Shown here: positions 21,228 through 64,000 of the stretch, in pieces
Layout: each line of letters opens with the position of its first letter
Numbering within the stretch: position 1 is the stretch's first letter
Assembly: GCA_900555615.1 (NCBI GenBank)
Contig: USMB01000002.1
Span: 33,230-97,229, forward strand
Reading direction: 5' to 3'
Source: an uncultured Clostridium sp.
GTDB taxonomy: Bacteria > Bacillota > Clostridia > TANB77 > CAG-508
Length of the DNA stretch: 64,000 bases
The notes under the pieces: model-generated
Told to the model about the DNA's origin: nothing
What the model saw: the letters and a program-made list of their open reading frames with translations, nothing else
Database searches by the model: none
Position numbers and translations under genes: made by a program

Positions 21228-21254
21228 AAGTGCTAAAAATGGCACTTTTTTTTT
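21228..21254 (+). terminator. Rho-independent terminator (part of the giant-gene 1 upstream cassette)
   Basis: aagtgcta-aaaa-tggcactt stem-loop, then nine T's. Confidence 0.7.
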
Positions 21255-21303: not shown

Positions 21304-21352
21304 TATATAGAGAAAAATATAAGATTTTTGAAGCAAAAGATGGAGGAAAAAC

Positions 21353-24300
21353 ATGTTAAAAAATAAAATAATTGTTAAGAAAATTAGAAATATATTAATA
21401 TTATTTATGGCAATCTTGATAATGATTGGAGCATACCATAATGTTCGAAGGTCAAGAGCAGAAAATGTAATAGAAATTTCGATGGAGGTAGCAGATAAAA
21501 ACAACAGCTTGGAAAAACAAACAGTAACGATTGATGCTACAGAAACTAAAAATGGAGTTTATTTAGCAGAGTTACCAACATCTGTAAACGGAAATAGGGT
21601 AACTAAATATTATACATCAGATGGCGAAGAACTTGAAATAGATCCAGCTAGTGTAGAAAAAATAACATTAGAGTTAACAGAAGATGAATTAGCAAATAAA
21701 AAAATTAGCTTAGGAACAGAGTATGACAAAAAGACTGCTATTATTGATGATGTTGAAACAACTCTTTACAACAAAGAATTTATAAATGAAGACGGAGATG
21801 TTATTGTAACAGGATATATGCCTCTAGATATTCAATTAGATTTTACTGAAATTGATGCTAATGCATTAAAAGATATAAGACTTCCTAGTGATGATTTAAC
21901 AGTAAAAAAATCTTTTGGAATCTCTATACAAGAAATGATAGATGTATCCAAGACAACAGACAAAGCCGAAACAGATGATACAACTAAAACTGATGGAAAG
22001 AATCAAGTGAATGATACAACTGGATTAGCTGAAAATGCTCAAACAAATGAAACAGAAAAACAATTAATAGAATATGATTCAACAAAATATGGTGAAGATA
22101 TAACAATAAAAATAAAACAAGCTGATAGCAAAGAAGAAACTGTAATCTATAGTTTTTCTGATGGCACACCAGTAACAGAAGTTGTTTATACAAACACAGA
22201 TGGAATATTGAGTTTCTTAAAGAATGATAATGATAAATTCATATATACAGTAAAAAAACAAGAGACAACAGATAATGTAGCAAGTGAAGAACAAGTTGTT
22301 GATGATACACAAGATAGTGATGCAGTTCAAATAGATGAAGATACAACAACTTCTGATGATAGTACAATAGTAAATAGGCCTAACAATGGACCTAAAAAAG
22401 CTCAAGCAAGAGCAGGAAGTAAAGTTGCGACATTAGACACAATTTGGAGTCATGGAGAATCACTTGGAAACGGACTAAATAATGCACAAAATAGTAATTT
22501 CTTTGGATTAGTTCCAAGAGGAAAAATATCTAGTATAACATTACTTACATCTGATGGAAAAGATTCAAGTGGAAATAAAATAAATTTTGATGTTAGTGGT
22601 GCACAAAGTCAATCAATAGCGACTGGTGGATCAGTTATTCTTTACTGTATACCTAATGGTAGCACATATAAAGCTTATATGCTTCCGGGTTCTGATGTAG
22701 GAACTATAAAATTTAATTCAGATTCAAAATTTATATTTTCATATTTAGGATATGAATCTTCATGTACTGAAACAGAAGTTGTAAAAGGATTTTTTGATTC
22801 TAGCAGTATAGTTGATACAAGTGGAATTACACAGGCAAGAGCAATGTTTGCACATATTGGAAGAAATGGAAGTATGAGAACATTAACTATTGGACCTAAA
22901 TTTACTACAACTTCAATAAAAGATACACAAGATATGTTTTATGAATGTGGATTTTCAAATATGACAACCTTGAAATTTAGTTCTAATTTCAAACTGGAAA
23001 ATGCAACAAATCTTTTATCAATGTTTTACAGATGTGGATACAACAAATTAACAAGCTTAGATTTATCAAATATGACAACTGCTAATGCAACAAGTATGGA
23101 ACATATGTTTAATATGTGTGGAAATCAAAGTTTGACAAGTTTGAAAATAGGATTTAATACAAGCAAAGTAACAAATATGCATGCTATGTTTGCTAACTGC
23201 GGAACAGAAAAATTGACGACATTCAGCTTAGGAAACAATTTTAATACAAGCAATGTAACAGACATGGGATATATGTTTGAAAAATTTGGTGGACCATTAA
23301 CAGAACTAAAATTGGGAAGCAATTTTTCAACAAGTAAAGTAACTAATATGCAAGGAATGTTCTCTCAAACAGGAACAAAATCAATGAAAAAAATCCAACT
23401 TGGAGATAAATTTACATCAATAGCTTCTGGAAATTATTCAGACTTCTTAAATAATACAGGAGCAAGTGGATGTAAAATATATGTACCAGGAGCAATATAT
23501 TCAAATAAACATGCAGTAAAATTAAGTACTAGTTCATCAACAACAATATCATATACAAAAGGATATATAGTAGGACCTGACAATGCAGCTCCAACATGGG
23601 CAGACAATGTAAACGGTGCAAAATATTCAGCAACTGATCATACATATACAATGAATTTAGTAGGTTCTGATGCAGTGGCATTAGATGCAGAAGCTTCAAC
23701 ATTAACTAAAGGCTCAACTATAAAAGTAAAAATAGGAAATTCAGAAACATCTAATTATACGCTTGGTGCAACGAGTTTAAGTTCAGATGAAAATACTAAA
23801 ACATTTCCATTAACTATAAACAATTACACAGGTGGGGCAATTACAATTACAATATCAGCAGGAACACTTATAGACTTAAGAGAAAATAAAAGTGCTGCCA
23901 AAACTTATAATATTGCATCTGTTGATGGAACTGCACCAAAATGGAGCTCAAGTGTAAGTGGAGGAACATATTCAGGGACTGATAAAACATATACATTAAG
24001 TTTAGTAGGTACTGATGAAACTTCATTAGATGATAGCGAGTCTAAACTAACAAGAGGTTCAAATATAACTGTAAAAGTAAATAATACAAGTACGTCAAAT
24101 TATACACTTGGAAATACAACATTAAGCTCAGATGGAAGAACTAAAACTTTCCCATTGACAATAAGCAGTTATTCAGGAGGAACAATTGTAATTACAATAA
24201 CAAAAGGGGCATTAGTAGATAGAAATGGAAATACAGAAGCAAGTGGTGCAACATATACAATAAGACCTAATGTAGATACAACAGCACCAAAATGGAGTAG

Positions 24301-27300
24301 TAATGTAACTAATGGAAGTTATTCATCAACTGGACATACATATAGCTTGACTATAACAGGAACAGATGAAACTCAATTACAATCTAATAAGCTAAGTACT
24401 TTTAATACAACGGTTCAGGTTAATGGAAGTAAAGTAACCAATTTAGACTTTGCACAACCAGTACTTAGCTCTGATAAAAAAACAATAACAATTAAATTAA
24501 CAATTAAAAATTACACCGGTGGAAAAATTACAATAAAAATTGCATCAGGAGCGTTGATTGATGCAACAGGAAATGCAGATACTAAAGGAGCAACATATGA
24601 ATTTACTCCTAATACAGATGTAACAGCACCAAAATGGAATAGTTCAGTAAATAATGCAACATATTCATCATCTGCTAATACATATACATTTGAAGTTGTG
24701 GGAACAGATGAAACAAGTTTAAAAACAGGATTGACATTAAATGCATCTAATGCACCAATAACAGTAAATGGTTCAACAGCAAGTGTAACATATGGTTCGG
24801 GACAATATTCAAACAGTAATAAAACAGTAACATTTAAAATAACAGTAAGAAATTATTCTGGTGGAAAAATAGTAATGAATATTAAAGCAGGTGCATTGCA
24901 AGATAATGGTAATCCAGTAAATTCGAGCGTTGCACAAAATTACACGATGGATCCTCAGACAGATTTTACAGCACCAGTATGGAATGGGTCTATAAATAAT
25001 GGAAAACTTTCTGGTAGTACATATACATTAAATTTAATAGGAACAGATGAAACAAAATTACAACAAACAACATTAAGCACATCAAATGTTTCTGTAACAG
25101 TAGGAGGAAAGTCAGCATCATTTTCTTTCTCAAATAGAGGACAAGGACAATTGTCAAATAACAACAAAACAATAACATTTGGAATGACGATTTCAAATTT
25201 CACAGGTGGAAATGTAACAATAACAATTAATGCAGGAGCATTAAAAGATACAGAAGGAAATTTGAGTGTAAAACAAACATATTCATTTTCAGTAGATGGA
25301 ACTGCACCAAAATGGAATTCAAGTGTTACTGGAGGTACATATTCAAGTACTGCACATACTTATACTGTGAAATTGATAGGAACTGATGAAACAAAATTAA
25401 ATGACTCAATGTCAGCATTAAGTTCATCAAATGTAACAATAAAAATAAATGGAACACCAATAAGTACTTTCTCATTTAAATCATCAATTAGCTCTGACTA
25501 TAAAACCAAAACATTTACATTAACAATTACAAATTATACAGGAGGAAAAATAACAATTCAAATAGACGAAGGAGCATTAGTTGATACAGCAGGAAATAAA
25601 GAAGCAAATGGAGCAAAATATGAATTTACCCCAAATATAGATTCTGTGGTACCAGCATGGAAGACTAGTATAAGTGGTGGAACGTATTCATCAACTAACC
25701 ACACATATTCATTTAGTTTGGTAGGTACTGATGAAACAGCATTAAATAATTCAGCATCTGTATTAAATTATGATAATATGCTAGTAACAGTAAATGGAAC
25801 AAAAGTTACACGATCTAATTTAGTATTTGGCTCAACCTCAATAAGCTCAGATAATAAAACAAAAACATTTCCAATAACCATAAATGGATTCACAGGAGGA
25901 GCTGTAGTAATAACAATAAATTCTGGTGCATTATCAGATATGACTGGAAATAAGAGTAGCGAAATTAGCTATAAATTTACTATTGATGGTACTTTACCAG
26001 TATGGAGTAATGCTATAAATGGTGGAACATATGATGAAAATGCTAAAACATATACATTTAAATTGGTTGGATCAGATGAGACTGGAATCCAACAAACTAC
26101 ATTAAGCTCATCAAATGTAACAGTAACAATGGGCGGAAAAACAGCAAATGTTACATTTTCTAATGGCGGTAAAGGAACTATAAATGATAAAACAATAACA
26201 TTTGAGTTAACAATTAATAGCTTTGTAGGTGGACAGATAAATATTTCAATTAGTGCAGGAGCATTAAAAGATACTTCAAATAACTTAAGTGTGGCAAAAA
26301 CATATTCATTTAGCAAAGACGTAACGCCACCAACATGGGATTCTAAAATAACAAGTACATCATATAAAAACAGTATATATACAGTTAATGTTACAGGTAC
26401 TGATGAAACAGCATTAAATAATTCAAGTTCAACATTAAGCTCATCAAATGTAACAGTAACAGTAAATGGAACTGCAGTAAGTGCTTCAAATTTAACATTT
26501 AGTGGTCAATTAGCATCAGATTCAAAATCAAAAGCATTTGCGATTGGAATAAAGAGCTTTACAGGTGGAGAAATAAAAATTGTAATAAATCCAGGGGCCT
26601 TGACAGATACATCAGGAAATAAAGAAAAGACTGGAGCAACATATAATTTAACTGCTGATATAACACCACCTGCTTGGGGAAATGCAACAGGAAAATATAA
26701 TCCAGATGACCAATCTTATACAATAACAGTAACTGGTACAGATGATATTGAATTAAATACTAGTGCATCTGCACTTACAACATCTAATTCAACATTGACA
26801 GTTGGCGGAACTGCAGTGACACCAACAATAACTAAAACAGCTTCTACATCAAAAAGTGTGACATATGAAATAAAAATTTCAAAGCATACAGGTGGAGCAA
26901 TTTCATTTAAAATTAATGCAGGAGCATTAAAAGATGCTCAAAACAATACTAGTGCTGAAAAAACATATACATTTGCAGCAGTAGATGCAGTAAAACCAAC
27001 ATGGGCAAGTAACATTTCTGGAGGTACATATTCAAATGGTACATACTCATTTAGTGTAGTGGGTTCTGATGAAACAAAGTTGGATACTTCAAAATCAGTA
27101 CTAAGTTCATCAAATTTTTCAGTAACCACTAGTGGAAATGCAGTAAGCTCAAGTGATATAACTTTTGGATCACCAACACTAAGTTCAGATGGAAAAACAA
27201 AAACATTTCCTATAACAATAAAAAACTTTAAAGGTGGACAAGTAAATATTACAATTGCTGAAAAAGCTTTGTATGATACAACTGGTAACTGGAGTGTTTC

Positions 27301-45919: not shown

Positions 45920-45942
45920 TTTATATAACTAATGCTGAGAGG

Positions 45943-46227: not shown

Positions 46228-46254
46228 AGCACCAAAATTGGTGCTTTTTTTTTT
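46228..46254 (+). terminator. Rho-independent terminator (part of the giant-gene 2 upstream cassette)
   Basis: agcacca-aaat-tggtgct stem-loop, then ten T's. Paralogous to the hairpin at 21228, with complementarity kept on both strands of the stem. Confidence 0.7.
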
Positions 46255-46274
46255 GAAAAAAATGCCGAAAAACG

Positions 46275-46303
46275 TTGAAAAAAATAGCCTGTTATGATAT
46301 AAA
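46275..46303 (+). promoter_or_regulatory. Putative promoter of giant gene 2 (paralogous to 21275-21303)
   Basis: TTGAAA(46275-46280), 17-nt spacer, TGaTATAAA(46298-46303). Upstream TTGAAAAAAA box at 46253. Exactly 25,000 nt downstream of the giant-gene 1 promoter. Confidence 0.5.
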
Positions 46304-55300: not shown

Positions 55301-58300
55301 GGTCCAATGAGTATATCATTCCCAGCAGGAACAATAAAAGATACATCAGGAAACTTAAGTGATGCAAAGACAATCACAATAGGTGTAAATGAACCAGATA
55401 ATACTGGAACAGATAAAATTGTCGATGTTGTAGATCCAATGTGGAGAACAGATAATATAAACATAGACTATACAAATAAACAAGTAACAGTAGATTTAAT
55501 AGGAACCGATAAATATTATGCAAGCAATAGCCTAACAACAGATAAAATTAAAGTTTTAGTTGACGGAGAAGAAGCAACAAGCATAAAGAAAACATTAAGT
55601 ACTGCTAGTACAATTCAATATGGAGTTAAATACACATTAACACTTTCAAATTGGGAAGAAAGTACAAAACAATCTGGAAAACAATTCTTTGAATGGAGTG
55701 GTACAACAAAGATTGAAATTGCAGCAGATACATTAAAAGATGAATCAAATAACACAAGTAATAAACAACAATTTACATTAGGGCATGTAGACTTTATAAA
55801 ACCAAAAATTGAAAGAGTATCATCAACAAAGAATGCAAGCAACAAGACAGAAACAATAGTGTTTAATGTAATTGATAAATACTTAGATGTAACAGATTTA
55901 GTTACAGAAAGTGATATTTCAGTATATGTAGATAATGAATTAGCTTCACAAATAAGCAAGAAATTAACAAAAGTATCTGATATATCAGGAACTGTAAATG
56001 GAGTATCTAAAGTAGTTGGACATCAATATCAATTAGTATTAAGTAACTTTGAGCAAAAGAGAACAGCAATTAACTACAACAGAGAATATTCTGATTGGAG
56101 TGGCAATGTAAAAATCAAGATTGCTAAAGATGCTGTAAAAGATACAAATACACCAACACCTAATAAAAATGATGAAACAGAAATTGCAGGAGAATTTATT
56201 GATTTTATAAAACCAAATGCAACATATCAATATTCATCATCAAATATAGATTATAATGGAAAAACATTTACAATGGTATTTGATATAACAGATAAACACT
56301 ATAGTTCAGCTACATTAGCATTAAGTGATTTAACTATTAGAATAGATGGCGAAGAACCAAATTGGGATGATACAGGAGTTCATGGAGTAATTAAACAACT
56401 TACTATTATAGATAGGACTAATACTGTAAATGGCCAAACACAAACAATTGGTAAACGTTATACCTTAAAACTTTCTCATTTAGAGCAATTAGAAAAATTG
56501 GCAGGAAAAGAAACAATGGATTACAGTGGTGTAATTACAGTTGCAATTCCTAAAGATAAGGTAGCAGATACTTCTGAAAATAAAAATGATGCTTTAACTA
56601 TTACTTCTGGTATAGAAGTTAAAGGTGAAACAGGAAAAGGAGAGATAGGACTTCCTGCTAATAATACAGTAATGGCTATAGGAACTAACCCTGGAGGAAG
56701 CAGTGCTAGTAGTAGTTTTGCAAATATGAATGTTTATGCATTAGAAATTTCTAATGAAACAGGAATAATAGGAAAATATGATGCTACAAATAATACTGGA
56801 AATGGACATAGTAACTCTACAACAACATGGAAAGACCTAAATGGAAGCAATAATGGTACAATTAATGGAGCAATTTGGGGAAATAATTATTTAAAATTTG
56901 ACGGAGTAAATGATTGGGTAAACCTAGGCCAAATGAGCTTTACTAATTATGCAAGTTTAGATATAACAATGTCAATAGATAAAGTTCAAAGTGGTGAGGT
57001 TGATCTTGTTTCAAACTTTGAAGATGGCGGTATAGGAATATACTTAATGAATGGCGTACCAAGATTTTCTATATATAGTAAAAATTTGAATAAATATATA
57101 GAAATTAGTGCAGACACAGCCTTAACAGTTGGTGAAAAAACAAATATTAAAGGTATATATGATGGAAATAACTTATACTTATATATAAATGGAAATCCAG
57201 TAACAGGAACTGTAGTAGACGTTGTAGACCCAATATGGGAAAGAGTAAGTTCATCAGCAAGTGCCGCAAATCAAACAGCTACAATTACAGTAAGAGGAAC
57301 AGATAAATATTTTGCAAGCAGTGCTTTAACAGCAGATAAGATAAAAATTCTTATAAATGGAAAAGAAGTTTCAACAAATGTTTCAGTAAATGTTGGAACG
57401 GCAACACCAGTATATTCAGCAGATGGAACAACAAGAATAGGAGACCAATATACAATAACACTTAGTGGTTCTGGATTACCTAAAGATACTAACCAAATTA
57501 AAGTTCAAATCCAAGAATGTGCATTAACAGATACTTCTGGAAATAAGAATAAAGCAACAGATTTGATAGTATTTAATGCATTAGCAAAGACAGATACAGA
57601 AACAAGTGCAACAAGTGGATTCTTAGGAAGTGCAAGTAGTGCTAATACAAAAGTAAAAACAATCCAAAGACAGAACATTGACAATGTAACATTTGTAGAT
57701 AATATACCTTCAACAGTATATGATAAATCAGCACAAGCATATGTTGATGATAAAGCATGGGATGTTTCAGCAATGCAAGATAAGTCAATTTTAGCTTGGT
57801 ATACAACAAATGCTAATGGAAGTTTAAAAGTTTACATTGGTAGTGATAATGAAATATTTGGAAATTATAATTCTAGCTATTTATTTAAATATATTGGATA
57901 TTCAGACAAGTGTACTTCAGCAGAGACGATTACTAATATTAATTTATTAAATGTAAGCAGTGTAACAAATATGAGAGGAATGTTCTGGATGACTGGATGG
58001 AGAAGCATGAAAAAATTAGAGCTAGGAGCTAATTTTGATACAAGTAATGTAACAAGTATGTTATGTATGTTTGGAGAAACAGGAAAACAAGCTATGACAA
58101 CTTTAGACTTAGGAAGCAAGTTCTATACAAGTAAAGTTACTGATATGAGCTATATGTTTAGTCAAGCAGGATGGGTTGCAATGACAAGCTTGAATTTAGG
58201 TGGAAACTTCAATACAGTTAGTGTAACTAATATGAATAATATGTTTAGTAATACTGGACATGAGGTATTGACAACTTTAAATTTGGGCGGAAACTTTAAT

Positions 58301-61300
58301 ACAAGTAATGTAACAGACATGGCACATATGTTTGAAGCTACAGGATATAAGGCAATGACAGGCTTAGATTTAGGTGAAAAATTTAATACAAGTAGTGTAA
58401 CAAATATGAATAGTATGTTTGAAGAAACAGGATATACAGCAATGACAAGCTTAGATTTAGGTGGCAATTTTAATACAGTTAAGGTAACAAATATGAATGC
58501 AATGTTCTATAGAACTGGTCGCACAGCAATGACAACATTAAATTTAGGAAGCAATTTTGATACAACAAATGTAACAGATATGAGATCAATGTTTAATGAA
58601 ACTGGATTCACAGCAATGACAAAATTGGACTTAGGTGATAAGTTTAATACAAGTAAAGTAACTAATATGTACAGAATGTTCTTTAATACAGGGGCAACTC
58701 AAATGACATTATTAGATTTAGGACCAGCATTTACAAAGATAGCAGATGGAAACATTACTATAGATTCAAATACACTTAAAGCATATTCAGAGATGTTCAC
58801 ATATACTGGAAAAAATAATGCAATAACAATTTATGCATCAGAACAAATTTACTTAGACAAAAACAACTTCAAGTTAAACACAGATGCAACAAGTTCTGCA
58901 ATAAACTACACAAGAGGAACAATAAATCCAAGATATAGAACAGAATGGATAAATGAAAACTCAAAAATAACAATAGATACAGCAAATCCAAAGAACAGTA
59001 AAATAACAATAACATTAAGAGGTAGAACAAATGCAGAAGCAGGAGTAGACTTCACAAGTAATGTAACAAGTTCATTAACACAAGCAAAACTAAATGATCA
59101 AATTCAAATATTTATAGATGGTGAGCAAGTTGATGGACTAACTAAAACAATAGGAGATGCAACAGTAGTAAAAAATGCAGTAACAGGAGCAAATGATGTA
59201 ACACAAGTATTAACATTATCAAACTTTGAAGAATCAGCAAGACAAAGTGGAAAGAACTTCAAAGAATGGAGTGGTAATATAATATTAAAGATAGACAAAA
59301 AGACATTAAAAGATGACAAATATGGAAACCAAAACTTAAAGGCAATAGACACAACAGGAACAATGCAAGACATTGTAATACAAGGAACTGGAACAGAAAC
59401 AAGCAATAATACAACAAGTACAACAACAATGTTTACAGATTACATTAAGCCAGAATTTACATATGAATATGCAAATACTCAAATAGACTATGACAAAAAG
59501 ACTGTAACAGTGGTATTTGATGTAACTGATAAATATTTTAAACAATCAACAGTATCTTTAGACAATACAACAATAAAAGTTGATGGAAAAGATGTAGATT
59601 GGACAAAAGTAAATAAAACATTAGCAAAAAAGAAAACAAATGCAGACCAAAAAGTTGGAGAAATCGTTTATAAAACAGATGGAACAATCTGGTACCCAGT
59701 AAATGGTAAATTACAACAAATTGGTGAGAGATATGAACTTATAGTAAGTGGTTTAGAAACAAAGAATGGTGAAGGTTACAGTGGTACAATGACATTAGCA
59801 TTTCCAAGTGGAATTGTAACAGACCAATCAAATAATTCAAACTCTGCAAAAACTATAACACTTGGTATAGATGACCCAGAAAATCATGGAGACCACAAAG
59901 ACCCAATAGTAGTCGATGTTGTAAATCCATTATGGAGTTATGGAACAAGTAGTATAAACAGAGTAAGAAATGGAGCAACAGCAGATACAGTAGACCTAAC
60001 AATTATCGGAAGTGATAAGTATTATAAAGCAAATACATTAACAGAAGATAAGATAAAGGTATATGTAGATGATAAATTACAAGTTTCAATAACTAAAAAG
60101 TTAACTCAAATAACAGATACAGCAACATTAAAGAAATTAGCTACAAAACAAGGATTAGCAGATATAAATAACTTGAAATTTACAGGATATAAGTTAACTC
60201 TAGGAAATTTCGGAACAATAAACGGAGTTACAAAGATTGTAATAGATGCTGGAACAATCCAAGACGAAAGTGGAAATAAGAATATAGAAACAACGATAAA
60301 TGTTGGAAATATAGAATGGATTGAAAATGGAGATAGCAGTACAAATCAAAAATATCCAGCATTCAGAAATAGTATTGTAGACTTCATAAAACCAGTAATC
60401 AAATACAAATATTCAGCTGTAGAAGGAGCAAGAAATCCTGATATAGATTATGAAGCGAGAACATTAACAGTTAAATTTACGGTAACAGATAAATATTTAC
60501 GCGAAAGTACAATAATAAAAGCAGATGGAACATTAAATACAGATGCAGTAAAGATTAAAGTTGCTGGAACAGATTTAACAACTCAATTACATACAGTAAT
60601 TACTTCAGCAGATATTACAGATGGAAAAGAATATACATTAGTAATATCAAACTTTGAATTAGTATATAACACTGGAAAAGGATATGAAGACTATAGTGGT
60701 GAGGTACAATTAGTATTTGAAGCAAATAAGATTGATGATACATCAGGAAACAAAAATGATGCAACAACAATTACAATTGACACAGATGATGGAGATGATC
60801 CAGACCATTCAATAATAGTCGATGTAATTGACCCATTAATAGAAAAAACAAAAGATAGCTTAAGTGTTAGAAATGCTCAAAATAATATTGTAAGAGACTT
60901 AAATACAGAAACAGGTGTAGTATCAGTAGAAATAAGAGCAACAGATAAATACTTAAAATCTGGAACACTTGAAAACGTTGCAGAACAAATTAAAGTAATG
61001 ATGATAAAACCAGGAACAACAGAAAAGGTTGAAGTTCCAACAATCAAGAAAACTGTAACAAAATTAAGACAACAAGCAACATTGATTGATTATAAAATTA
61101 CATTAAGCAACTTTGAAAGAAACGAAGGAATAACAAGTATTGTAATTCCAAAAGGAGTAATCAAAGATACATCAGAAAATGGAAATAAAGAAACAGAATT
61201 ATTAGTAGGAAATGCAACATGGGTTGAAGTTGGAGATTCAAAAGGAGAATATACAGCATTTAGAGATAGTATTATAGATGTAACTAGACCAACATGGAAC

Positions 61301-64000
61301 TATGCAACAAGTAGTATTACAAGAGATAGAGATGGCGAAACAGGAACAGTAACAATAAAAATACTAGGAAAAGATACATATTACTTAAAAGATACATTAA
61401 CAACAAATGACATTAGCGTATATGTAGCAAATAGCGAAAATCCAGAAGAACCAATAACAACAATAACTAAGACATTAACAAAAATTACAGACACAGCTCA
61501 ACTTGAAGGAGCAGATACAGGATATACATTAACATTAGGAAACTTTGGAAAATATGATGGAAAAGTAAAAATTAAAATTGATGCAGATACAATCAAAGAT
61601 ACATCAGGAAATGGAAACAAAGAAACAGAAATTTCAGTAGGAAATAGCAAATGGGTAGAAACTGATGTTGGTGATAGTTCTACAAATCCTAAATATACAG
61701 CATTTAGAAACAGTATTGTAGACTTTATAAAACCAATAATCATATATCAATATGAAGATGGAGTAAACCCAGTAATAGACCGTGATAACAAGAAAGTATC
61801 AATATCATTTAATGTAACAGATACAAATTTCTTAGAAAGTAATATCACAGCATCAGATATTAGAGTTCTTGTAGATGATATGGAAGTTACAGATTCTATA
61901 ACAAAAAAACTAGAAAAATCAGATATAAAAGATACTACAGATACAAATAAGAAGAATGGAGTTAAATATACATTAACATTATCAAACTTCGAATTAGACC
62001 AAAACTTAGAAGATGAAATCTTCAGAAGACATAGTGGAAAAATCGAATTAATAATTGCTAAAGATAAAGTAAGAGATACATCTGGAAACGGAAATATCGA
62101 AACAAGCATAATAGTTGATAATGAAAATGGTGATGATGAAAATAACTTTATAAATGTAGACTTTGTAAAACCAAAGATATTCTATGACAGTAAATTCATT
62201 AGTTGGGATAATAGGTATGCAGAGGTAACAATAAAGGGAACAGATAGATTCTATGACTTTAATACAAAATTGGAACCAGAAGATATTAAATTATATCAAC
62301 AAAATGATAATGGAGATTACATAGAGGTTACTAATTTACCTGTAACTATAAAATCTGTAAAAAATAAATATGGATATGACTTTGTTATCAGATTAGGAGA
62401 ATTTGAAGAAGAATACAAGATGAAGATTGTAATAGCAGCTGGCAAAATTTCAGATTCATCTGGAAATGTAAACGAAGAAACAGAAATTATAGTTGGATTA
62501 GATAATAAGAAACCAATATGGAAATATATCAGTACAGATACTTCAAAATTTGAGACAGATGGTAAAATAAGCTTTACAGTTAAAGGTCAAGATAAATTCT
62601 TGAATTTAACAAAGAGCGGATTACAAGATTCTAATATGAAAATTTATAAAGATGGAGTAGAATTAACAGACAGTGTTGGAATTACAGTAAATTACTTAGG
62701 ACAAGATACGACTGAAAAATCAAAATCTTATAAAATTGATATAACAGGATTAAAAGAAATTGGCTCTTATTCATTAGTATTTGAAGAAAAAACATTAATT
62801 GATGAGTTTGATAATGAAAGTAATGCAACAACAATAAGCTTCTCTAAATCAGCAATTTCATCAAATACAAATAATTACACAGCAGTAACATACCATGCAA
62901 GCCATGACTTTGAATTAATGCATCAAGCATATGTACATGAATTGATGAGTGTAAATAAAACTGGAAAGAACTCAGAAAGCAAGACATATAGAGCAAGTTC
63001 AGTTGGAGAAATTTATAAAAATGTTGGAAACACAACATTTGCAGAACCATTTACATATACAAATGGAACACAATCAGCTTATAGCTTTAAAGGATGGGGT
63101 GTAGCAAATGAAAATGGACATTTAGTAGATGACCAAGGAACAATTTTAACAGATGAATCAAAAGCAACAATATATGGATTATATGATGAAATTCCAGAGA
63201 CAGTTACAAATTTGAAAGCAATATGGCAAAAAGCGACAGTAATCTTTGTGTCAAAGAATGGAAATAACGCAAACAACGGATTTTCACCAGAGACACCAGT
63301 TAAAGATATAAAGACAGCATATAGCAAATTAAGTGCTTCTGGAACAATGAAAACAAATGTAATTGTTATTATGGATGCAATTGAATGGAATAGCAGTGAT
63401 GTTTTAACAGGAAATGCAACAATAACAAGTTTATATGCAGGAGTTGATTATACAAACAAAGGTGCAGAGTTAAAGATTAGTTCTAATATGCAAATAAATG
63501 GTAATGTAATGTATGATGATATTAAGTTATATTCAAATTCTACAACAGTAAGTGATGGTAGTGATTATTTAGCAAATGGTTCATATAACAACATGTTAAT
63601 TACAAACTATGGAAATGTAGTTTTAGGAAGAGGAATAATAACACCAAATGGAAAATATACATTTGGAGCAGTAATTGGAGGAGAATATAGGCAAGAGACA
63701 AAGACAGGTTCAATTGGAATTCATACAGTAATAGTAGAAGCTGGTAAATACAATGATATAGTAATTGGAAGTGCTTTGGGCTCAGGCGGACAATCAATAA
63801 AACCTAAATATGTTTCTCATCAAATAACTATAGGAACTATGAAAGAAGCGGCAATATCAAGAAATAGTCGTGTAACAATAACAGGTTACTTGAGCATGGG
63901 AGAACTAGAAGATAGATGTTATCCATATAAGACTTCTGGAAATCAAGAAACAAGTTCTTCATATAGTAGAACATATTCAATAACAAGATTATATAGTGCA
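46355..64000 (+). CDS. Second giant modular surface protein, paralog of 21353-45919 (at least 5,882 aa, 3' end beyond the window)
   Basis: ATG at 46355 after GGAGGA. Frame (position mod 3 = 2) was checked by hand at 49.6 kb, 58.0 kb and 63.96 kb, with stops in the other frames. No + strand ORF with a stop is listed anywhere in 46-64 kb. N-terminus MLKKRKNVRKIIVLLMSIISI matches the MLKNKIIVKKIRNILILFMAI of gene 1. Same domain types. Confidence 0.8.
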   Translation, partial: MLKKRKNVRKIIVLLMSIISIISLGINLNKVTKEKYNPALNLYNASETINIDKGEIDPIYRPKWEKVSSSFSAANKTLTVIVKGSAYENKTIDANTQIKYASDVISTLSASNVKVFIDGVEVTSTTNPTVKITDTKTSTNTTSGKKEVTHTIQLSNLEEAVRQAGKNYKEWSGNIALKITGRGQDESTYSSNVLTDADGNHSMMEIQEDGAWVNIELKDTKTDHNTDNVMFADYIKPEFTYVYAAKDIDHTNKTLTIDFSITDKYFDSTKLITDTNGTLTANQSVVNQITVAMKDDATTAVNTKVTKKITNIQYITEKRDNENVRIGAKFTLVIGNLQQETSSGNYRDYSGPMSITFPKEIASDKSGNQNDAKTITIGIGEPSNSGSQQIVDVVDPVWRVENLQKTVNSTTGKLTATMDIYGTDKYFKQSTLTAEQIQVWVDGVNITASGSTAKISRTLTKVEDLTEQRDGKTVTYGIHYKYTITDLEETDALFNAERAKYAANTSTGRVYREYSGDMSIVIPANTMVDNYTNTNKALTYSLGHIDSIKPEIIKISSTRDATNKKETFVFDVVDKYIASSALGTTVTEANNNKSKVHVFVDGEAADSVTKNYTRVTPLSAKINGTSKVVGYRYTLELTGFEKARTAINFNREYSDWSGNVTLEIDAGVAKDTANNFSVKTVFTGDFVDFIKPNATYQYATADIDHTDKTFTMVFDVTDKFYSSGTLAIGDLTIKIDGKDVDWNKVSKSLTVADRQNTVKITENGVVKSVTKTIGKRYTLKLSNLEQIQTRDTSGNYISYSGVVTVAIPGSKFSDTGVDGQNTSPNRNDGTTITSGINIPGGSGTGQVVDVVDPLVERLNSSANAVNKTATVKFNITDKYYDATKAALTQNDMKVLVNGTEVTGKITGFSTKALTESKTTNGTTSQVQYGVEYTVTISNFDTSANQVLLRIPQGKVIDQYGNSNKQTDLILYNVLKSAASEADTTSVFLGGKIQRQNIENITFEKIISSAVYNHTTKEITDTTRAWDVSAQGDQSIVAWYVDSEKNANGMYKIHIANNNVTTIAADSKTTDVSNSIIYANQNSTQLFSYIGYATGCTATTTITNLSLLNTTSVTNMYRMFRGTGYTAMTKLDLGAFDTSNVTNMSAMFETTGYTAMQTLNLGTSFKTNKVTNMAYMFNACGETALKSLDLGTNFNSSEVTNMYRMFRRCGYSAMTSINLRNMNTSKVTNMSGMFYETGRTKLTTLDLGTNFNTSKVTNMSGMFNWMGALTTLNLRDKFDTSNVTDMKSMFWGTGYSNMTSFSLGDKFNTGKVTDMSGMFYDFAHNISKLDLGDNFYTTSATNMTNMFYQAGQTAMTVLDLGPAFTRIADTRTNMFYNTGKSGNVVYASEQIYLDKNNFKLNTSVTTSAINYTRGTINPRYRTEWIKQSSQITIDSANPKNSKITITLRGRTNAEAGKEFTSNVTSSLTQSQINDQIKVFIDGKEATTITKTIGNATADTNATTGASDVVQVLTITNFQEAARQSGKSYKEWSGNISLKIAKKTLTDTKYSNQNLSAIDTTGTMTDIVLAGTGTEKQNDTTSTSTMFTDFVKPEFNYLSSETTINHDTKTVTILFSVRDKYFSNSGLTADTTASKISVTVADEEINSKITKKLEVVEEEKDTVNGKNKKVGEKYRLTITGLDHKDGTHYSGIMQLGFAKDLVADFSGNKNDSQTITIGVDTPNGTGSGTIVDVVSPVWSIASTNAITGVIKLRVTDKYLVKADSIFALTKDSIKVIVNGVESTTIEKSLSGPTEITANQVYEYTLTLSNIEPSDGGYTEFTPIDPIVGGTAKYRNENGGDVKLRIVAGTVTDKYGNKTLQQDLVVGSLDNTKPEVYYVQTTRDNTNHKATIVFNVTDKNYYSSKIIGTDEMSIWMDGTQIDSNITKTITKKVEIKTTIDNKTKVVGHQYTLEINKLRETDQTFINSARSYREYSGTLQVKINPTAARDIKGNTINQNTATLSSFVDTLKPEVVYKYSSSDINKENKTFSMTFDIVDKYYNSASSSAISISDLAIRIDGKEPDWSKVTRTLTPTGGDDITATNISYTDNGTIKTGNKVVGKRYTLTLSNLEQLQTKDISGNYIEYSGVVSVVIPQNKVADIGTTGDKTNLNKNITTTITSGISLPGGSGNDQVVDVVDPLVEKITSSASAVNKTASVNFKITDKYFAKSTLTQNNIKVLVNGTEVTGKITGFTSKELKEDRTSGSTTTQFQYGVEYTVNVGGFDSNVNQVIVRIPQGVVTDTSANGNKQTDLVLYNVLKKTDTESAITSVFLGGKIQRQNIYNITFEKVIPNSVYNHATKKISDTTRAWDVSAQGDQSIVAWYVDSEIKNSTYKIHIATNSQVPGQTTVGNNEIFANVNSSRLFQNIGYSTNCTATEVITNLNLLDTASVTDMRWMFQYTGYNAMKKLDLSSLDTRNVTLMSAMFYGTGYKAMDTLTFGTNFNTSKVTTMEYMFYETGYTAMQTLNLGSNFNTSKVTNMQYMFRDCGHDALTALDLGSNFDTSKVTNMDSMFYRVGFAKLETLNLGNNFNTIKVTSMGGMFAGVGQTSPLKTLDLGKNFDTRNVTNMSYMFHCTGTSGMTSLDLGDKFYTTSATNMQNMFYQLGTNAMTLLDLGPAFTRIADSYTDMFTNAGKSGEMKIYASEQIYLDKNNFKLNTSATESAISYTRGTINPKYRTEWVKESSSISTANKNITITLRGRTNSEAGVDFTSNVTSLLTQNQINDQIKVFVDGKEATSITKTIATATTDKNAVTGANDVIQVLTLSNFEETARQSGKSYKEWSGNISLKIAKKTLTDETYSNQNLSAIDTTGTMTDIVLAGTGTENKNNTTSTSTMFTDYIKPEFTYSFSTGNINYIDKTLTVDFTVTDKYFESTILKTDTTAQNITLKLKDDETAPVNSNVTKELKYVSDVMDTVNGKSVKVGEKYKLVVKGLEQKTLNGDYKNYSGPMSISFPAGTIKDTSGNLSDAKTITIGVNEPDNTGTDKIVDVVDPMWRTDNINIDYTNKQVTVDLIGTDKYYASNSLTTDKIKVLVDGEEATSIKKTLSTASTIQYGVKYTLTLSNWEESTKQSGKQFFEWSGTTKIEIAADTLKDESNNTSNKQQFTLGHVDFIKPKIERVSSTKNASNKTETIVFNVIDKYLDVTDLVTESDISVYVDNELASQISKKLTKVSDISGTVNGVSKVVGHQYQLVLSNFEQKRTAINYNREYSDWSGNVKIKIAKDAVKDTNTPTPNKNDETEIAGEFIDFIKPNATYQYSSSNIDYNGKTFTMVFDITDKHYSSATLALSDLTIRIDGEEPNWDDTGVHGVIKQLTIIDRTNTVNGQTQTIGKRYTLKLSHLEQLEKLAGKETMDYSGVITVAIPKDKVADTSENKNDALTITSGIEVKGETGKGEIGLPANNTVMAIGTNPGGSSASSSFANMNVYALEISNETGIIGKYDATNNTGNGHSNSTTTWKDLNGSNNGTINGAIWGNNYLKFDGVNDWVNLGQMSFTNYASLDITMSIDKVQSGEVDLVSNFEDGGIGIYLMNGVPRFSIYSKNLNKYIEISADTALTVGEKTNIKGIYDGNNLYLYINGNPVTGTVVDVVDPIWERVSSSASAANQTATITVRGTDKYFASSALTADKIKILINGKEVSTNVSVNVGTATPVYSADGTTRIGDQYTITLSGSGLPKDTNQIKVQIQECALTDTSGNKNKATDLIVFNALAKTDTETSATSGFLGSASSANTKVKTIQRQNIDNVTFVDNIPSTVYDKSAQAYVDDKAWDVSAMQDKSILAWYTTNANGSLKVYIGSDNEIFGNYNSSYLFKYIGYSDKCTSAETITNINLLNVSSVTNMRGMFWMTGWRSMKKLELGANFDTSNVTSMLCMFGETGKQAMTTLDLGSKFYTSKVTDMSYMFSQAGWVAMTSLNLGGNFNTVSVTNMNNMFSNTGHEVLTTLNLGGNFNTSNVTDMAHMFEATGYKAMTGLDLGEKFNTSSVTNMNSMFEETGYTAMTSLDLGGNFNTVKVTNMNAMFYRTGRTAMTTLNLGSNFDTTNVTDMRSMFNETGFTAMTKLDLGDKFNTSKVTNMYRMFFNTGATQMTLLDLGPAFTKIADGNITIDSNTLKAYSEMFTYTGKNNAITIYASEQIYLDKNNFKLNTDATSSAINYTRGTINPRYRTEWINENSKITIDTANPKNSKITITLRGRTNAEAGVDFTSNVTSSLTQAKLNDQIQIFIDGEQVDGLTKTIGDATVVKNAVTGANDVTQVLTLSNFEESARQSGKNFKEWSGNIILKIDKKTLKDDKYGNQNLKAIDTTGTMQDIVIQGTGTETSNNTTSTTTMFTDYIKPEFTYEYANTQIDYDKKTVTVVFDVTDKYFKQSTVSLDNTTIKVDGKDVDWTKVNKTLAKKKTNADQKVGEIVYKTDGTIWYPVNGKLQQIGERYELIVSGLETKNGEGYSGTMTLAFPSGIVTDQSNNSNSAKTITLGIDDPENHGDHKDPIVVDVVNPLWSYGTSSINRVRNGATADTVDLTIIGSDKYYKANTLTEDKIKVYVDDKLQVSITKKLTQITDTATLKKLATKQGLADINNLKFTGYKLTLGNFGTINGVTKIVIDAGTIQDESGNKNIETTINVGNIEWIENGDSSTNQKYPAFRNSIVDFIKPVIKYKYSAVEGARNPDIDYEARTLTVKFTVTDKYLRESTIIKADGTLNTDAVKIKVAGTDLTTQLHTVITSADITDGKEYTLVISNFELVYNTGKGYEDYSGEVQLVFEANKIDDTSGNKNDATTITIDTDDGDDPDHSIIVDVIDPLIEKTKDSLSVRNAQNNIVRDLNTETGVVSVEIRATDKYLKSGTLENVAEQIKVMMIKPGTTEKVEVPTIKKTVTKLRQQATLIDYKITLSNFERNEGITSIVIPKGVIKDTSENGNKETELLVGNATWVEVGDSKGEYTAFRDSIIDVTRPTWNYATSSITRDRDGETGTVTIKILGKDTYYLKDTLTTNDISVYVANSENPEEPITTITKTLTKITDTAQLEGADTGYTLTLGNFGKYDGKVKIKIDADTIKDTSGNGNKETEISVGNSKWVETDVGDSSTNPKYTAFRNSIVDFIKPIIIYQYEDGVNPVIDRDNKKVSISFNVTDTNFLESNITASDIRVLVDDMEVTDSITKKLEKSDIKDTTDTNKKNGVKYTLTLSNFELDQNLEDEIFRRHSGKIELIIAKDKVRDTSGNGNIETSIIVDNENGDDENNFINVDFVKPKIFYDSKFISWDNRYAEVTIKGTDRFYDFNTKLEPEDIKLYQQNDNGDYIEVTNLPVTIKSVKNKYGYDFVIRLGEFEEEYKMKIVIAAGKISDSSGNVNEETEIIVGLDNKKPIWKYISTDTSKFETDGKISFTVKGQDKFLNLTKSGLQDSNMKIYKDGVELTDSVGITVNYLGQDTTEKSKSYKIDITGLKEIGSYSLVFEEKTLIDEFDNESNATTISFSKSAISSNTNNYTAVTYHASHDFELMHQAYVHELMSVNKTGKNSESKTYRASSVGEIYKNVGNTTFAEPFTYTNGTQSAYSFKGWGVANENGHLVDDQGTILTDESKATIYGLYDEIPETVTNLKAIWQKATVIFVSKNGNNANNGFSPETPVKDIKTAYSKLSASGTMKTNVIVIMDAIEWNSSDVLTGNATITSLYAGVDYTNKGAELKISSNMQINGNVMYDDIKLYSNSTTVSDGSDYLANGSYNNMLITNYGNVVLGRGIITPNGKYTFGAVIGGEYRQETKTGSIGIHTVIVEAGKYNDIVIGSALGSGGQSIKPKYVSHQITIGTMKEAAISRNSRVTITGYLSMGELEDRCYPYKTSGNQETSSSYSRTYSITRLYSA
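49670..50500 (+). repeat. DUF285/BspA-like repeat block 1 (giant gene 2)
   Basis: ~26-aa ...VTNM..MF..TGY.AMT.L.LG.NFNTS.. units. Confidence 0.55.
53620..54370 (+). repeat. DUF285/BspA-like repeat block 2 (giant gene 2)
   Basis: As above. Confidence 0.55.
56640..57200 (+). other. LamG-like (concanavalin-A-like lectin/jellyroll) domain inserted in giant protein 2
   Basis: GNNYLKFDGVNDWVNLGQMSFTNY.SLDITMS..KVQSGEVDLVSNFEDGGIGIYLMNGVPRFSIY...LYLYINGNPV is a typical Laminin_G_3-like pattern. It is absent from every other module in either gene. Confidence 0.45.
57950..58820 (+). repeat. DUF285/BspA-like repeat block 3 (giant gene 2)
   Basis: As above. Confidence 0.55.

Follow-up and report, generated by a model that had tools for sequence, protein, structure and literature searches.

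The 64,000-nt stretch of DNA analysed here (the window) carries two real and intact giant genes of 8,188 and 7,417 codons, and on balance we think it probable that they encode a pair of separately transcribed, fibre-like surface proteins, each about 0.2 µm long and bearing several LRR blocks. The fibres are probably adhesins. The host is an uncultured spore-forming member of the Clostridia from the human gut, with low GC content (~30%). Together, gene 1 and gene 2 take up ~46.8 kb, which would be roughly 3% of the genome if its size is ~1.5 Mb, as in the related complete MAG OV788638.1 (1.55 Mb).

The sequence-only reading had described two giant open reading frames on one strand, the second still open after 5,882 codons at base 64000, and both are present as it described them. 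At ~30% GC a random frame meets a stop once per ~12 codons, so the lengths of these frames are not due to chance, and the ORF listing of the window gives no ORF of at least 150 aa on the opposite strand of the giant-gene region. Given the metagenomic source and the highly repetitive sequence, the ORFs could conceivably be repeat-collapse chimeras or decaying genes. The length of gene 1 varies by assembly (8,188 vs. 8,299 aa), part of the orthologues in other MAGs are truncated, with interrupted ORFs of 420, 725, and 899 aa, and frameshifts abound in L042, a long-read contig from a related species (63–77% amino acid identity). However, internal repeats within the giant genes share just 60–79% DNA identity in self-blastn, and are therefore too divergent for collapse to be likely. 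Contigs L001–L003 and L043–L050, from independent assemblies of the same species, are 99.4–100% identical to the window, with at least six independent contigs in agreement. In addition, the frames stay open across 8,188 and 7,417 codons, both gene types are conserved in ~25 species along with their promoter, RBS, and leader, and the frameshifts in L042 resemble homopolymer errors of long reads. An assembly artefact is unlikely, and we regard artefact or pseudogene, taken together, as a highly improbable account of these ORFs. The interrupted orthologues may mean that the genes are dispensable, or that those assemblies are imperfect.

Since gene 2 runs out of the window, its full length was taken from L048 and L050, two same-species contigs that match it at 99.5–100% identity over the overlap. 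These were reached through a DNA-pattern scan of metagenomes; the protein database yielded only fragments and the frameshifted L042. The features of both genes are collected in Table 1. After its Ig stalk, of which the first 16 domains are ~113-aa repeats (period 333–345 nt; repeat families D9, D12, and D16), gene 1 continues with LRR-B, three Ig-like domains, LRR-C, six Ig, LRR-D, eight Ig, LRR-E, six Ig, and LRR-F, which forms the C-terminal end of the protein (aa 8188), for a total of 43 Ig-like copies and six DUF285/PARCEL LRR blocks. In gene 2, the leader is followed by six Ig, LRR-1, six Ig, LRR-2, five Ig, the LamG-like insert, one Ig, LRR-3, and nine Ig, the last run ending at aa 5514 (27 Ig-like copies and three LRR blocks in the visible part). 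A beta-helix region begins at aa 5515. Past the window, it includes ~20 ‘GN(I/V)YGGG’ beta-helix rungs (aa ~5900–6500), followed by a C-terminal region of ~900 aa ending in ...KLVFKACFDDAIIQTVRKTFIVTD, a motif conserved among type-2 relatives.

Table 1. Coordinates of the features of the two giant genes and their expression signals (nucleotide positions are those of the window; aa, residues of the respective protein).
Feature	Position	Strand	Description
Cassette 1 hairpin	21221..21254	+	A-run, GTGC stem, loop, GCAC stem, T9
Cassette 1 promoter	21253..21303	+	Distal TTGAAAAAAA box 21253-21262; -35 TTGAAA 21275-21280; 17-nt spacer; extended -10 TG-A-TATAAA 21295-21303
Gene 1 RBS	21342..21346	+	GGAGG, 6 nt before ATG; invariant in cassette alignment
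Giant gene 1 (type 1)	21353..45919	+	ORF, 8,188 aa
Gene 1 leader	aa ~12-32		Hydrophobic, conserved SRA↓EN (hydropathy scan)
Gene 1 N-terminal beta domains	aa 39-198, 235-301		Disordered acidic/Thr-rich linkers between
Gene 1 LRR-A	aa ~380-740		DUF285/PARCEL HMMs
Gene 1 Ig stalk	23579..30736	+	20 tandem Ig-like domains, aa 743-3128 (domain HMM)
Gene conversion patch	42797..43252	+	456 nt, one Ig-like domain; 91.9% identical to 51107-51562 in gene 2
Gene 1 LRR-F	44915..45916	+	Lead-in xDVSAxxxxxIMAWY, seven 29-aa PARCEL/DUF285 repeats, C-terminal cap (VIYAPEVIYSTQTSFKLGI)
Gene 1 own intrinsic terminator	45934..45984	+	~21-bp stem then T-run, 15 nt past stop codon (terminator scan)
Cassette 2 hairpin	46221..46252	+	A-run, GCACC stem, loop, GGTGC stem, T10
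Cassette 2 promoter	46253..46303	+	Distal TTGAAAAAAA box 46253-46262; -35 TTGAAA 46275-46280; 17-nt spacer; TG-A-TATAAA 46295-46303
Gene 2 RBS	46344-46348	+	GGAGG (sequence)
Giant gene 2 (type 2)	46355..64000	+	ATG at 46355; first 5,882 of 7,417 codons in window
Gene 2 leader	aa ~11-29		Hydrophobic
Gene 2 LRR-1, LRR-2, LRR-3	aa ~990-1412, ~2310-2704, ~3760-4187		
Gene 2 LamG-like insert	aa ~3434-3621		
Gene 2 distal tail, start	62897..64000	+	Beta-helix region

By HMM, both ORFs are built from the same module types, and the motifs TDKYF, WDVS, and SIMAWY proposed earlier are all found in the motif map. The assignment to DUF285 (PF03382) is also well founded: all four protein chunks match significantly (E 1e-31 to 4e-72; 106–240 bits vs. 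a cut-off of 25), and the NCBIfam model for the PARCEL repeat (TIGR02167) scores 61–149 bits against a cut-off of 30. The M..MF motif of these blocks recurs with a period of 29 aa, in 38 copies in gene 1 and 26 in gene 2. In the models, the LRR blocks adopt a curved LRR solenoid fold like that of TpLRR/BspA structures (T. pallidum TpLRR 6mlx, B. ovatus 4fs7, PcpA 4cp6), which suggests that DUF285/PARCEL repeats are BspA/TpLRR-like LRRs. Identity is 9–12%, and the window blocks differ in their 29-aa period, in their signature N/D-T-S-x-V-T-x-M-x-x-MF, and in giving no match to LRR_5 (PF13306) in either protein at E up to 0.01. The Laminin_G_3 match in gene 2 is weak (E 2e-4), under the curated cut-off, and a sequence search of the PDB with either half of gene 1 and with two upstream unknown genes gave no match.

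The Ig-like repeats and the ‘TDKYF’ beta-sandwich domains had been taken for separate types. Both are present, but they belong to one family, with 70 copies over both proteins as counted with an HMM that we built ourselves, and its fold is Ig-like according to AF2 and Foldseek. None of the Big, Cadherin, or Ig models of Pfam that had been suggested matched either protein, and only the C-terminal half of our profile reaches Big_12 proteins, so the window domains form a divergent, unmodelled branch. This gives a clean definition of the family, with 1,817 cluster representatives in a profile search; they are often proteins of 4,000–7,700 aa, and the best matches fall in this range with 20–33 copies. 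The beads-on-a-string arrangement of the stalk is shared with Big_12 extenders of giant RTX/T9SS adhesins and with SbsC S-layer arrays (Foldseek matches the window domain to SbsC, 5ftx), whereas the absence of a significant Pfam Big_* match and a different secretion and anchoring route set the window proteins apart. The D...D-x-S-G-N positions resemble the Ca2+-binding junctions of Big_12/SbsC-type arrays, and these conserved D/N positions may bind Ca2+ at domain junctions here as well.

It had been suggested that the locus is a duplicated tandem adhesin locus. This is not a simple tandem duplicate. By BLASTP, gene 1 and gene 2 are 35–41% identical over stretches of 2–3 kb in several registers, the alignment is not colinear (gene 1 aa 5757–8186 aligns to gene 2 aa 55–2691), and the two products differ in both the N-terminal region and the C-terminus. 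Among relatives there are two conserved N-terminal types, one corresponding to gene 1 and the other to gene 2, and both lineages are found on one contig in several species. Because each gene belongs to its own orthologous lineage and the two co-occur, the duplication must be ancient and the likeness is at the level of modules; the pair is thus old rather than the product of a recent duplication. Upstream, orf406, orf420, the cassette, and the type-1 gene are syntenic in at least ten species, and in L011, L016, L019, L024, and L034 the type-2 cassette comes after a different giant gene, following its LRR cap. Against this old divergence, the 456-nt patch in Table 1 stands out at 91.9% identity vs. 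a background of 60–79% (self-blastn; repeat families D14, D15, and D17), and we read it as the footprint of a recent gene conversion between gene 1 and gene 2.

The variation among relatives points to how such genes grow. The proteins are concatenated supermodules, each of ~850–1,500 aa and comprising ~3–8 Ig domains, a lead-in, an LRR block, and a cap, and recombination adds, removes, and swaps both supermodules and single Ig repeats. For example, a type-2 orthologue that is 75% identical (P0137) ends after LRR block 2, and another relative (P0134) is without two supermodules. Between strains, the Ig repeat copy number of the gene 1 stalk varies: relative to the 99.9%-identical contig L001, the window has one extra 333-nt unit (~24968–25318), while gene 1 of L001 is called as 8,299 aa, 111 aa longer overall, despite being without that repeat. 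Some smaller relatives (~1,400–1,700 aa) may be single-supermodule proteins. Not all ~1,400-aa homologues are free-standing unit genes: P0009 overlaps the ORF before it by 32 nt, which marks it as the end of a giant gene that has been broken.

Each giant gene is preceded by a near-identical cassette, as had been noticed from the letters, which consists of a hairpin, a T-run, two TTGAAAAAAA boxes, TGATATAAA, GGAGG, and an ATG beginning ‘MLK’. The -35 elements lie where they had been placed, with TTGAAA, a 17-nt spacer, and TG-n-TATAAA. The window has exactly two copies of a 32-nt pattern that includes both TTGAAAAAAA boxes (21253 and 46253) vs. zero expected, and the alignment shows that the cassette is conserved from hairpin to ATG and that the promoter pattern is invariant in the window and related loci. 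In a scan of GTDB species representatives, the promoter core was found 34 times, always in MAGs of uncultured gut Clostridia, and 28 of the 34 matches precede a hydrophobic-leader ORF of the M(L/F)K/MSRR type, most of which run off the locus. This conservation across ~25 species-level genomes argues that the cassette is functional, and the specificity of the core could make it a marker for such giant genes in fragmented metagenomes. The exact 25.0-kb spacing of the cassettes had also been remarked upon; the offset is indeed 25,000 nt, but the ATGs are 25,002 nt apart, the spacing varies between strains, and the figure is a numerical coincidence.

The cassette hairpins proposed as terminators hold up, though the earlier reading missed an additional, stronger terminator of gene 1 itself (-25.5 kcal/mol, z -5.6) upstream of the cassette 2 hairpin. 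The cassette 1 hairpin, 137 nt past the stop of the upstream 420-aa gene, folds at -15.5 kcal/mol (z -6.6), was also picked up by the terminator scan, and looks like a bidirectional intrinsic terminator. For the cassette 2 hairpin the values are -17.3 kcal/mol and z -4.6, and its stem changes relative to cassette 1 are compensatory. Among 25 distinct cassettes, 16 retain the hairpin with stem sequences that vary. We prefer a terminator over a protein operator, because base pairing and the A/T runs on either side are retained even where the stem sequence changes. Rfam gives no support for a riboswitch or known leader RNA, with no match in the cassettes or UTRs (only a tRNA-Thr at 13318), and phase variation by homopolymer slippage was set aside, as the -35/-10 spacing is invariant and the sequence here does not differ between the window and three contigs of its species. 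In our model, the upstream intrinsic terminator would insulate each giant gene, and each would have a strong sigma-A-type promoter (A-tract/UP-like distal box, TTGAAA, 17-nt spacer, extended -10 TGATATAAA) with a GGAGG RBS. The two giant genes are therefore likely to be transcribed independently, judging from these signals.

How the proteins are held at the surface is less clear-cut. Each has a single N-terminal hydrophobic segment (Kyte–Doolittle 2.1–2.3 over 19 aa; nothing else exceeds 1.3), which would direct Sec export and would be the sole membrane-interacting segment. As claimed from the sequence, LPXTG and a C-terminal TM are absent, not only from gene 1 but also from full-length gene 2 and nine near-full-length relatives with both termini. 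Neither LP.TG nor a C-terminal hydrophobic segment was found in gene 1, visible gene 2, or these nine relatives, and reading the reconstructed gene 2 tail gave no sorting signal. Neither leader has a lipobox, the searches turned up no known module for wall binding or covalent anchoring, and RTX, T1SS, T9SS, and SLH signals are absent from the window proteins. AF2 models of gene 1 reach pLDDT 86.4 and 77.7, and the model of its N-terminus has a helix at residues 3–33 followed by beta domains; the disordered acidic linkers between these domains could span the wall. A ZU5-like identity for the beta domains was rejected as too weak (Foldseek 4d8o, E 5e-4, TM about 0.15).

The idea of an N-terminal signal anchor as the tether is uncertain for gene 1. 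Every type-1 leader, even in distant relatives, has a strictly conserved S-(R/K)-A↓E motif 5–9 residues past its hydrophobic core, and this motif looks like a signal-peptidase I site; cleavage there would remove the only tether. The proteins might then be secreted and shed, or retained non-covalently, rather than anchored in the membrane, with the type-1 leader cleaved (SRA↓EN), possibly by a SipW-type signal peptidase encoded downstream of gene 2, and the products forming an extracellular matrix or coat, or being retained through the membrane-proximal beta domains or through partner proteins from the flanking TasA/SipW-like genes. Consistent with this, L048 has two SipW/archaeal-type signal peptidase I genes downstream of gene 2 (one at 60.6 bits with TIGR02228, cut-off 51.85; the other at 1e-13 with NF046067, below cut-off), four small N-terminally hydrophobic ORFs lie beside them, and the leader of orf406, which is syntenic upstream, is TasA-like (‘STYAWFSTQ’). 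However, type-2 leaders are without a small-x-small motif, the type-1 c-region is unusually basic (HNVRRSRA), the AF2 helix runs through residue 33, neither orf406 nor any of the small ORFs is identified by NCBIfam as a SipW-cognate protein, and the linkage to SipW genes occurs in one contig only. We therefore consider secretion without a membrane anchor unlikely, while giving it real weight.

In the membrane-anchored fibre that we favour, the N-terminus would be proximal and the C-terminus distal to the cell, the Ig-like domains would form a beads-on-a-string stalk beyond the wall, and the BspA/TpLRR-like DUF285 (PARCEL) blocks would act as putative ligand-binding heads, of which gene 1 has six and gene 2 has three. 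The product of gene 2 would also carry a LamG-like lectin module and, at its distal end, a beta-helix tip. Such fibres would most likely serve multivalent adhesion to gut glycans, mucus, or other cells. Alternatively, the main role of the fibres may be something other than adhesion: they may form a coat for protection or spacing, act as a phage-receptor decoy, or use the beta-helix and C-terminal region of gene 2 to deliver a contact-dependent effector. The final ~1,900 residues of gene 2 (aa ~5515–7417) match no Pfam family and carry a Pmp-like or toxin-like beta-helix repeat, and we know of no DUF285 protein whose LRR ligand has been characterised. In a related lineage, a giant PARCEL protein (L007) has a DGR and a lectin tip diversified by it, and DGR-type diversification is also typical of phage–host arms races. 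In the window we saw neither an RT ORF nor a near-identical TR/VR pair, and the 4.7 kb that follow gene 2 in L048 likewise have no DGR. Signatures of toxins, enzymes, and immunity genes were all undetected, and an Ig stalk with LRR, LamG, and beta-solenoid modules is a classic adhesin layout. A DUF285 protein has moreover been linked to adhesion experimentally: in Lactococcus lactis, a protein with DUF285, Big_3, and MucBP contributes to adhesion to mucin and polystyrene (PMC5071367). A main role other than adhesion therefore seems distinctly improbable to us.

Giant repetitive surface proteins have already been described in gut Clostridia (10.1101/2023.11.21.568195) and in small-genome Firmicutes (PMC12863079), and the comparison helps to place the window proteins. 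With PARCEL/DUF285 surface proteins (PF03382, TIGR02167) they share tandem amphipathic 25–29-residue repeats far above HMM threshold, an N-terminal membrane-targeting sequence (frequent, not universal, in that family), variability and exchange by recombination, and an unassigned function (PMC2996958). Most PARCEL proteins described so far have one repeat tract and are small, being either lipoproteins or membrane proteins (PMC2996958), whereas the window proteins have up to six tracts between Ig-like domains on 7,400–8,200 aa, no lipobox, no link to mobile elements seen in the window, and no DNA dyad symmetry in the one block tested by a crude method that may overlook weak symmetry (LRR-F, 45100–45850: no inverted repeat of at least 12 nt; seed 7, distance up to 120). 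The Giant1–5 proteins of Apilactobacillus kunkeei are likewise encoded by consecutive giant genes (3,000–8,000 aa) that make up several percent of a ~1.5 Mb Firmicute genome, and are elongated at ~0.2 µm, a length predicted for the window proteins, with a beta-solenoid at the anchor-distal end and intragenic recombination (PMC12863079). They are analogues and not homologues: Giant1–3 are alpha-helical repeat rods while the window models are all-beta, and the A. kunkeei giants have a C-terminal SH3b-like/DUF5776 anchor, a cleaved signal peptide, and no DUF285 LRR (PMC12863079); DUF5776 has no match in the window proteins or the gene 2 tail. The gut Clostridia giants of West-Roberts et al. 2023 share the mammalian gut, very large size, LRR/binding repeats, and a proposed role in adhesion, but differ in length (10,000–30,000 aa) and in their RCC1, Listeria-Bacteroides repeat, YG, or dockerin content, and DUF285 is absent from the main text of that study (10.1101/2023.11.21.568195).

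The window proteins are thus of a large but fairly ordinary adhesin-like kind; their architecture is a new variant of giant adhesin-like/PARCEL proteins, and the novelty is modest. Current understanding is not overturned, and a known class of giant adhesin-like proteins is extended. More speculatively, the gene pair could lie at the centre of a surface-fibre system specific to a lineage of genome-reduced gut Clostridia, in which ancient, co-conserved, multi-headed fibres, one of them beta-helix-tipped, are expressed from a dedicated near-invariant cassette, processed or assembled with flanking SipW-type peptidases and TasA-like small proteins, and mediate an obligate attachment of the cells to host mucus or to partner microbes. 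We hold this to be rather unlikely as a whole; if true, it would amount to a new design of adhesin, based on iterating a head-and-stalk supermodule and tied to a dependent lifestyle. To our knowledge, the lineage has no cultured representative. Both genes and their expression signals are conserved across ~25 uncultured species that inhabit the guts of humans, rabbit, goat, and chicken, and the investment of ~46.8 kb implies an important surface function. The pair also provides a worked example of how giant genes grow through the concatenation and exchange of supermodules.

As the sequence-only reading had proposed, two giant open reading frames lie on the same strand, and its coordinates and motif claims were right except in small details. 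GC content is ~30% across both ORFs, and since this makes stops frequent in random frames, such lengths are not due to chance; ORFs on the opposite strand of the region all fall short of 150 aa. Both products start with MLK(N/K) and a hydrophobic segment, and they are 35–41% identical over stretches of 2–3 thousand residues in several alternative registers. Gene 2 runs past the window end, and eight metagenome contigs were recovered with a degenerate DNA pattern encoding the conserved MGELEDRCYPY motif; the final 2 kb of the window matched five of them at 99.4–100% identity. Joining the window to L048, a contig from the same species, gave a full length of 7,417 aa. Together the genes total 46.8 kb, which would amount to ~3% of a genome like that of a related 1.55 Mb MAG.

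Features of the giant-gene locus and of two related contigs (window positions unless a contig is named)
Feature	Position	Strand	Remarks
Glucosaminidase-like secreted-protein gene	9745–11484	+	
Cadherin-like secreted-protein gene	11489–13192	+	
Sporulation genes	15796–18154	+	directly upstream of the locus
orf406	18377–19597	+	
orf420	19825–21087	+	
Cassette 1 hairpin	21221–21254	+	A-run/stem/loop/stem/T-run; −15.5 kcal/mol, z −6.6
Gene 1 ORF	21353–45919	+	8,188 codons, ORF reading
Gene 1 own terminator	45934–45984	+	−25.5 kcal/mol; directly 3' of stop codon; stronger than cassette hairpins
Cassette 2 hairpin	46221–46252	+	A-run/stem/loop/stem/T-run; −17.3 kcal/mol, z −4.6
−35 elements (TTGAAA)	21275 and 46275	+	read directly in sequence
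Gene 2 ORF	ATG 46355 to window end	+	5,882 codons without stop
SipW-type cluster	L048:890–4690	−	same species, directly downstream of gene 2, beyond window
Avd-like ORF	L007:7023–7484		153 aa; adjoins VR/template repeat
Reverse transcriptase	L007:7780–8814		344 aa; RVT_1

An assembly artefact is an unlikely source of these ORFs, because the repeats are too divergent for assembly collapse, several independent assemblies agree, and the frames are intact, with both genes conserved along with their expression signals. Truncated orthologues, and a long-read contig ridden with frameshifts (L042), show that broken copies are possible in individual assemblies or strains. For example, in three species-representative MAGs (L014, L023, L038) the type-1 genes end after 420, 899 and 725 aa with cassettes and leaders intact; pseudogenisation, inactivation at strain level and errors in assembly are all possible causes. 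In a related species (L004:1–10708, L005, L006), a 1,376-aa “PF03382 protein” overlaps a preceding ORF of >2,200 aa by 32 nt and has the appearance of a giant gene's tail, cut off by a frameshift. Fragments probably make up some of the “1,400-aa single-module homologues” found in protein databases.

Both proteins share their domain types, as had been noted, with DUF285 (PF03382; E 1e-31 to 4e-72) the sole family recognised by Pfam; a Laminin_G_3 match in gene 2 was sub-threshold. NCBIfam labels the same repeats PARCEL (TIGR02167), a family described by Röske et al. (PMC2996958). Gene 1 has six blocks of these 29-residue repeats, marked by M..MF, and the part of gene 2 inside the window has three. 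The sequence that separates the blocks is made up entirely of one Ig-like family of ~115–170 aa, defined by an HMM built from the proteins' own sequence (43 copies in gene 1, 27 in gene 2), so that the “Ig-like repeats” and “TDKYF domains” previously listed as separate types are one. Its invariant positions are D1, P5, D31 (T-D-K-Y-F), and D132 and N136 (D-x-S-G-N). Every LRR block closes with the same cap, LDLGPAFT.IA...GK.G..IYAPE.IY....FKL, the Ig run after a cap opens with RGTINPKYRTEW, and gene 1 ends right after its sixth cap. This common cap and restart identify the proteins as in-frame concatenations of a supermodule of ~850–1,500 aa. A model of aa 1–745 (pLDDT 77.7) predicts a helix (3–33), beta domains (39–198 and 235–301), disordered acidic/Thr-rich linkers (200–233 and 304–372) and then the first LRR block; its ZU5-like match was too weak to use. 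The gene 2 tail carries ~20 “GN(I/V)YGGG” beta-helix rungs (aa ~5900–6500), and its C-terminal region of ~900 aa matched no Pfam family. It ends with a motif common to type-2 relatives (...FKA..Q..KTFIV), after which a terminator follows.

DNA repeats within the giant genes are 60–79% identical, with the exception of a 456-nt patch in one Ig-like domain (42797–43252 in gene 1, 51107–51562 in gene 2), whose 91.9% identity indicates a recent conversion event between them. The window has one extra 333-nt Ig repeat (~24968–25318) relative to L001, a same-species contig (L001:9986–10003), with an 18-nt overlap at the junction; the contigs are otherwise 99.9% identical. Such a strain difference within gene 1 makes the “exactly 25.0 kb” cassette spacing of the earlier reading meaningless, and the ATGs are in fact 25,002 nt apart. 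Despite missing this unit, the full L001 gene has a called length of 8,299 aa, 111 aa longer than gene 1, so further copy-number differences must lie downstream. Orthologues vary by entire supermodules: one (P0137) is 75% identical to gene 2 aa 1–2691 and ends after LRR block 2, and another (P0134, 4,628 aa) has two supermodules fewer. The Ig-like profile found 1,817 cluster representatives out of 1.84 billion, the best being proteins of 4,000–7,740 aa with 20–33 copies and the most distant Pfam Big_12 proteins.

Gene 1 has a type 1 leader (MLKNKIIVKKIRNI...RRSRAENVI) and gene 2 a type 2 leader (MLKKRKNVRKI...NKVTKE.Y.P), and both types occur on one contig in several species. Type-1 cassettes lie 3' of orf406 and orf420 homologues in at least 10 species, and type-2 cassettes lie 3' of another giant gene's LRR cap in at least five. 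With the two leader types recurring together, each in its own conserved upstream context, the pair is an old, conserved arrangement rather than a recent duplication. The orf406 and orf420 genes, syntenic with the type-1 giant gene in these at least 10 species, had no Pfam, NCBIfam or PDB match. Conservation is 55–69% for orf406 and 70–79% for the C-terminal 265 aa of orf420, whose N-terminal half is rich in Lys/Glu, and only 36–45% for the giant N-terminus.

The paired cassettes held up well: a 32-nt pattern covering both TTGAAAAAAA boxes occurs exactly twice in the window (21253 and 46253), with 0 expected from shuffles. Each cassette reads as hairpin, distal box, −35, 17-nt spacer and extended −10 (TG-A-TATAAA), then a ~40-nt leader, GGAGG and ATG, and from T-run to ATG the alignment is nearly invariant among same-species contigs and one related species. 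Gene 1 also has its own terminator, and the spacer between the genes therefore contains two. A scan for the promoter core (GTTGAAAAAAA-N7-TTATGATATAAA) in one genome per GTDB species gave 34 matches, all in uncultured Clostridia (or “Bacilli”-labelled) MAGs from human (Hadza, Nepal, Brazil), rabbit, goat and chicken guts, a complete 1.55 Mb MAG among them. GGAGG comes next in 28 of the 34, ahead of an ORF whose hydrophobic leader is of the M(L/F)K or MSRR type, and most of these ORFs extend beyond the 8-kb locus. The conservation of the cassette points to its being functional. Among 25 distinct cassettes, 16 keep the hairpin, and their stems come in at least three sequences; in the window the stems differ (GTGC/GCAC vs. 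GCACC/GGTGC) and both pair. A protein operator was considered, and a terminator or insulator fits better, given that pairing is kept while stem sequences vary. Rfam had no match in the cassette/terminator regions.

We propose that each gene is its own transcription unit, driven by a strong sigma-A-type promoter with a terminator insulating its upstream side, and that its product would be exported by Sec via the N-terminal leader. In gene 1, a disordered wall-spanning linker would lead to an Ig-like stalk displaying multiple LRR heads, reaching perhaps ~0.2 µm at ~4 nm per Ig domain; the gene 2 stalk would additionally bear a LamG-like module and a distal beta-helix. Tethering is the main uncertainty. 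The N-terminal segment alone rises above TM level in both proteins, confirming the predicted lack of a C-terminal TM; nine near-full-length relatives with both termini likewise have one N-terminal hydrophobic segment, and LPXTG is absent from these nine. For gene 1, the uncleaved state of this segment as sole tether is in doubt, as type-1 leaders strictly conserve an S-R/K-A|E motif resembling a site for signal peptidase. The main rival to an N-terminal anchor is that the product is cleaved and then non-covalently retained or shed. Besides this motif, it is favoured by the TasA/SipW-type-looking leader of orf406 (…ISTYAWFSTQKNVS) and by two SipW/archaeal-type signal peptidases downstream of gene 2, of 166 aa (TIGR02228, 60.6 bits, above cut-off) and 243 aa (NF046067, 1e-13, below cut-off), interleaved with four small proteins with N-terminal hydrophobic leaders (283, 144, 213 and 201 aa). 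Counting orf406 upstream, the giant pair appears to lie within a TasA/SipW-like locus.

The sporulation genes encode YunB and a SipL/SPOCS+LysM protein, and in L001 SpoVG (20–292) lies a short way upstream of them. They mark the host as an endospore former within the Clostridia, small though its genome appears to be. Farther upstream, one secreted-protein gene encodes a SagB-like glucosaminidase region together with an SH3_3 domain and a type I dockerin; in its neighbour, three Cadherin-like (PF12733) domains are accompanied by a TM segment at the C-terminus. Finding a dockerin in a gut Clostridia genome of 30% GC is a hint of a surface system based on cohesin and dockerin.

The LRR blocks belong to PARCEL/DUF285 on sequence grounds; their predicted fold resembles BspA/TpLRR, but their sequence does not place them in LRR_5. 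The Ig-like stalk domains are a divergent branch near Big_12, without a Pfam model. The giant proteins do not belong to the LPXTG adhesins or the DGR targets, and are not homologous to Apilactobacillus Giant1–5. In a different lineage without the cassette, a giant PARCEL protein (4,442 aa, cut) lies beside DGR-like parts (L007:6755–8814, ENA ERZ16268059 scaffold_893). The protein's C-terminal DUF1566-like lectin domain has the VR as its last ~105–125 nt, from 6755, and 25 of 31 mismatches to the template repeat (from 7627) fall at template adenines; the giant protein appears to have a genuine diversity-generating retroelement attached. An adhesion role for the giant proteins is suggested by their architecture, by the contribution of a Lactococcus DUF285/Big_3/MucBP protein to mucin adhesion (PMC5071367) and by analogy with other giant surface proteins (PMC12863079; 10.1101/2023.11.21.568195). 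As a general phenomenon, gut Firmicutes are already known to have giant repetitive adhesin-like proteins; the novelty lies in the design of an iterated head-and-stalk supermodule, in the pairing of two anciently co-conserved genes and in their dedicated promoter cassette.
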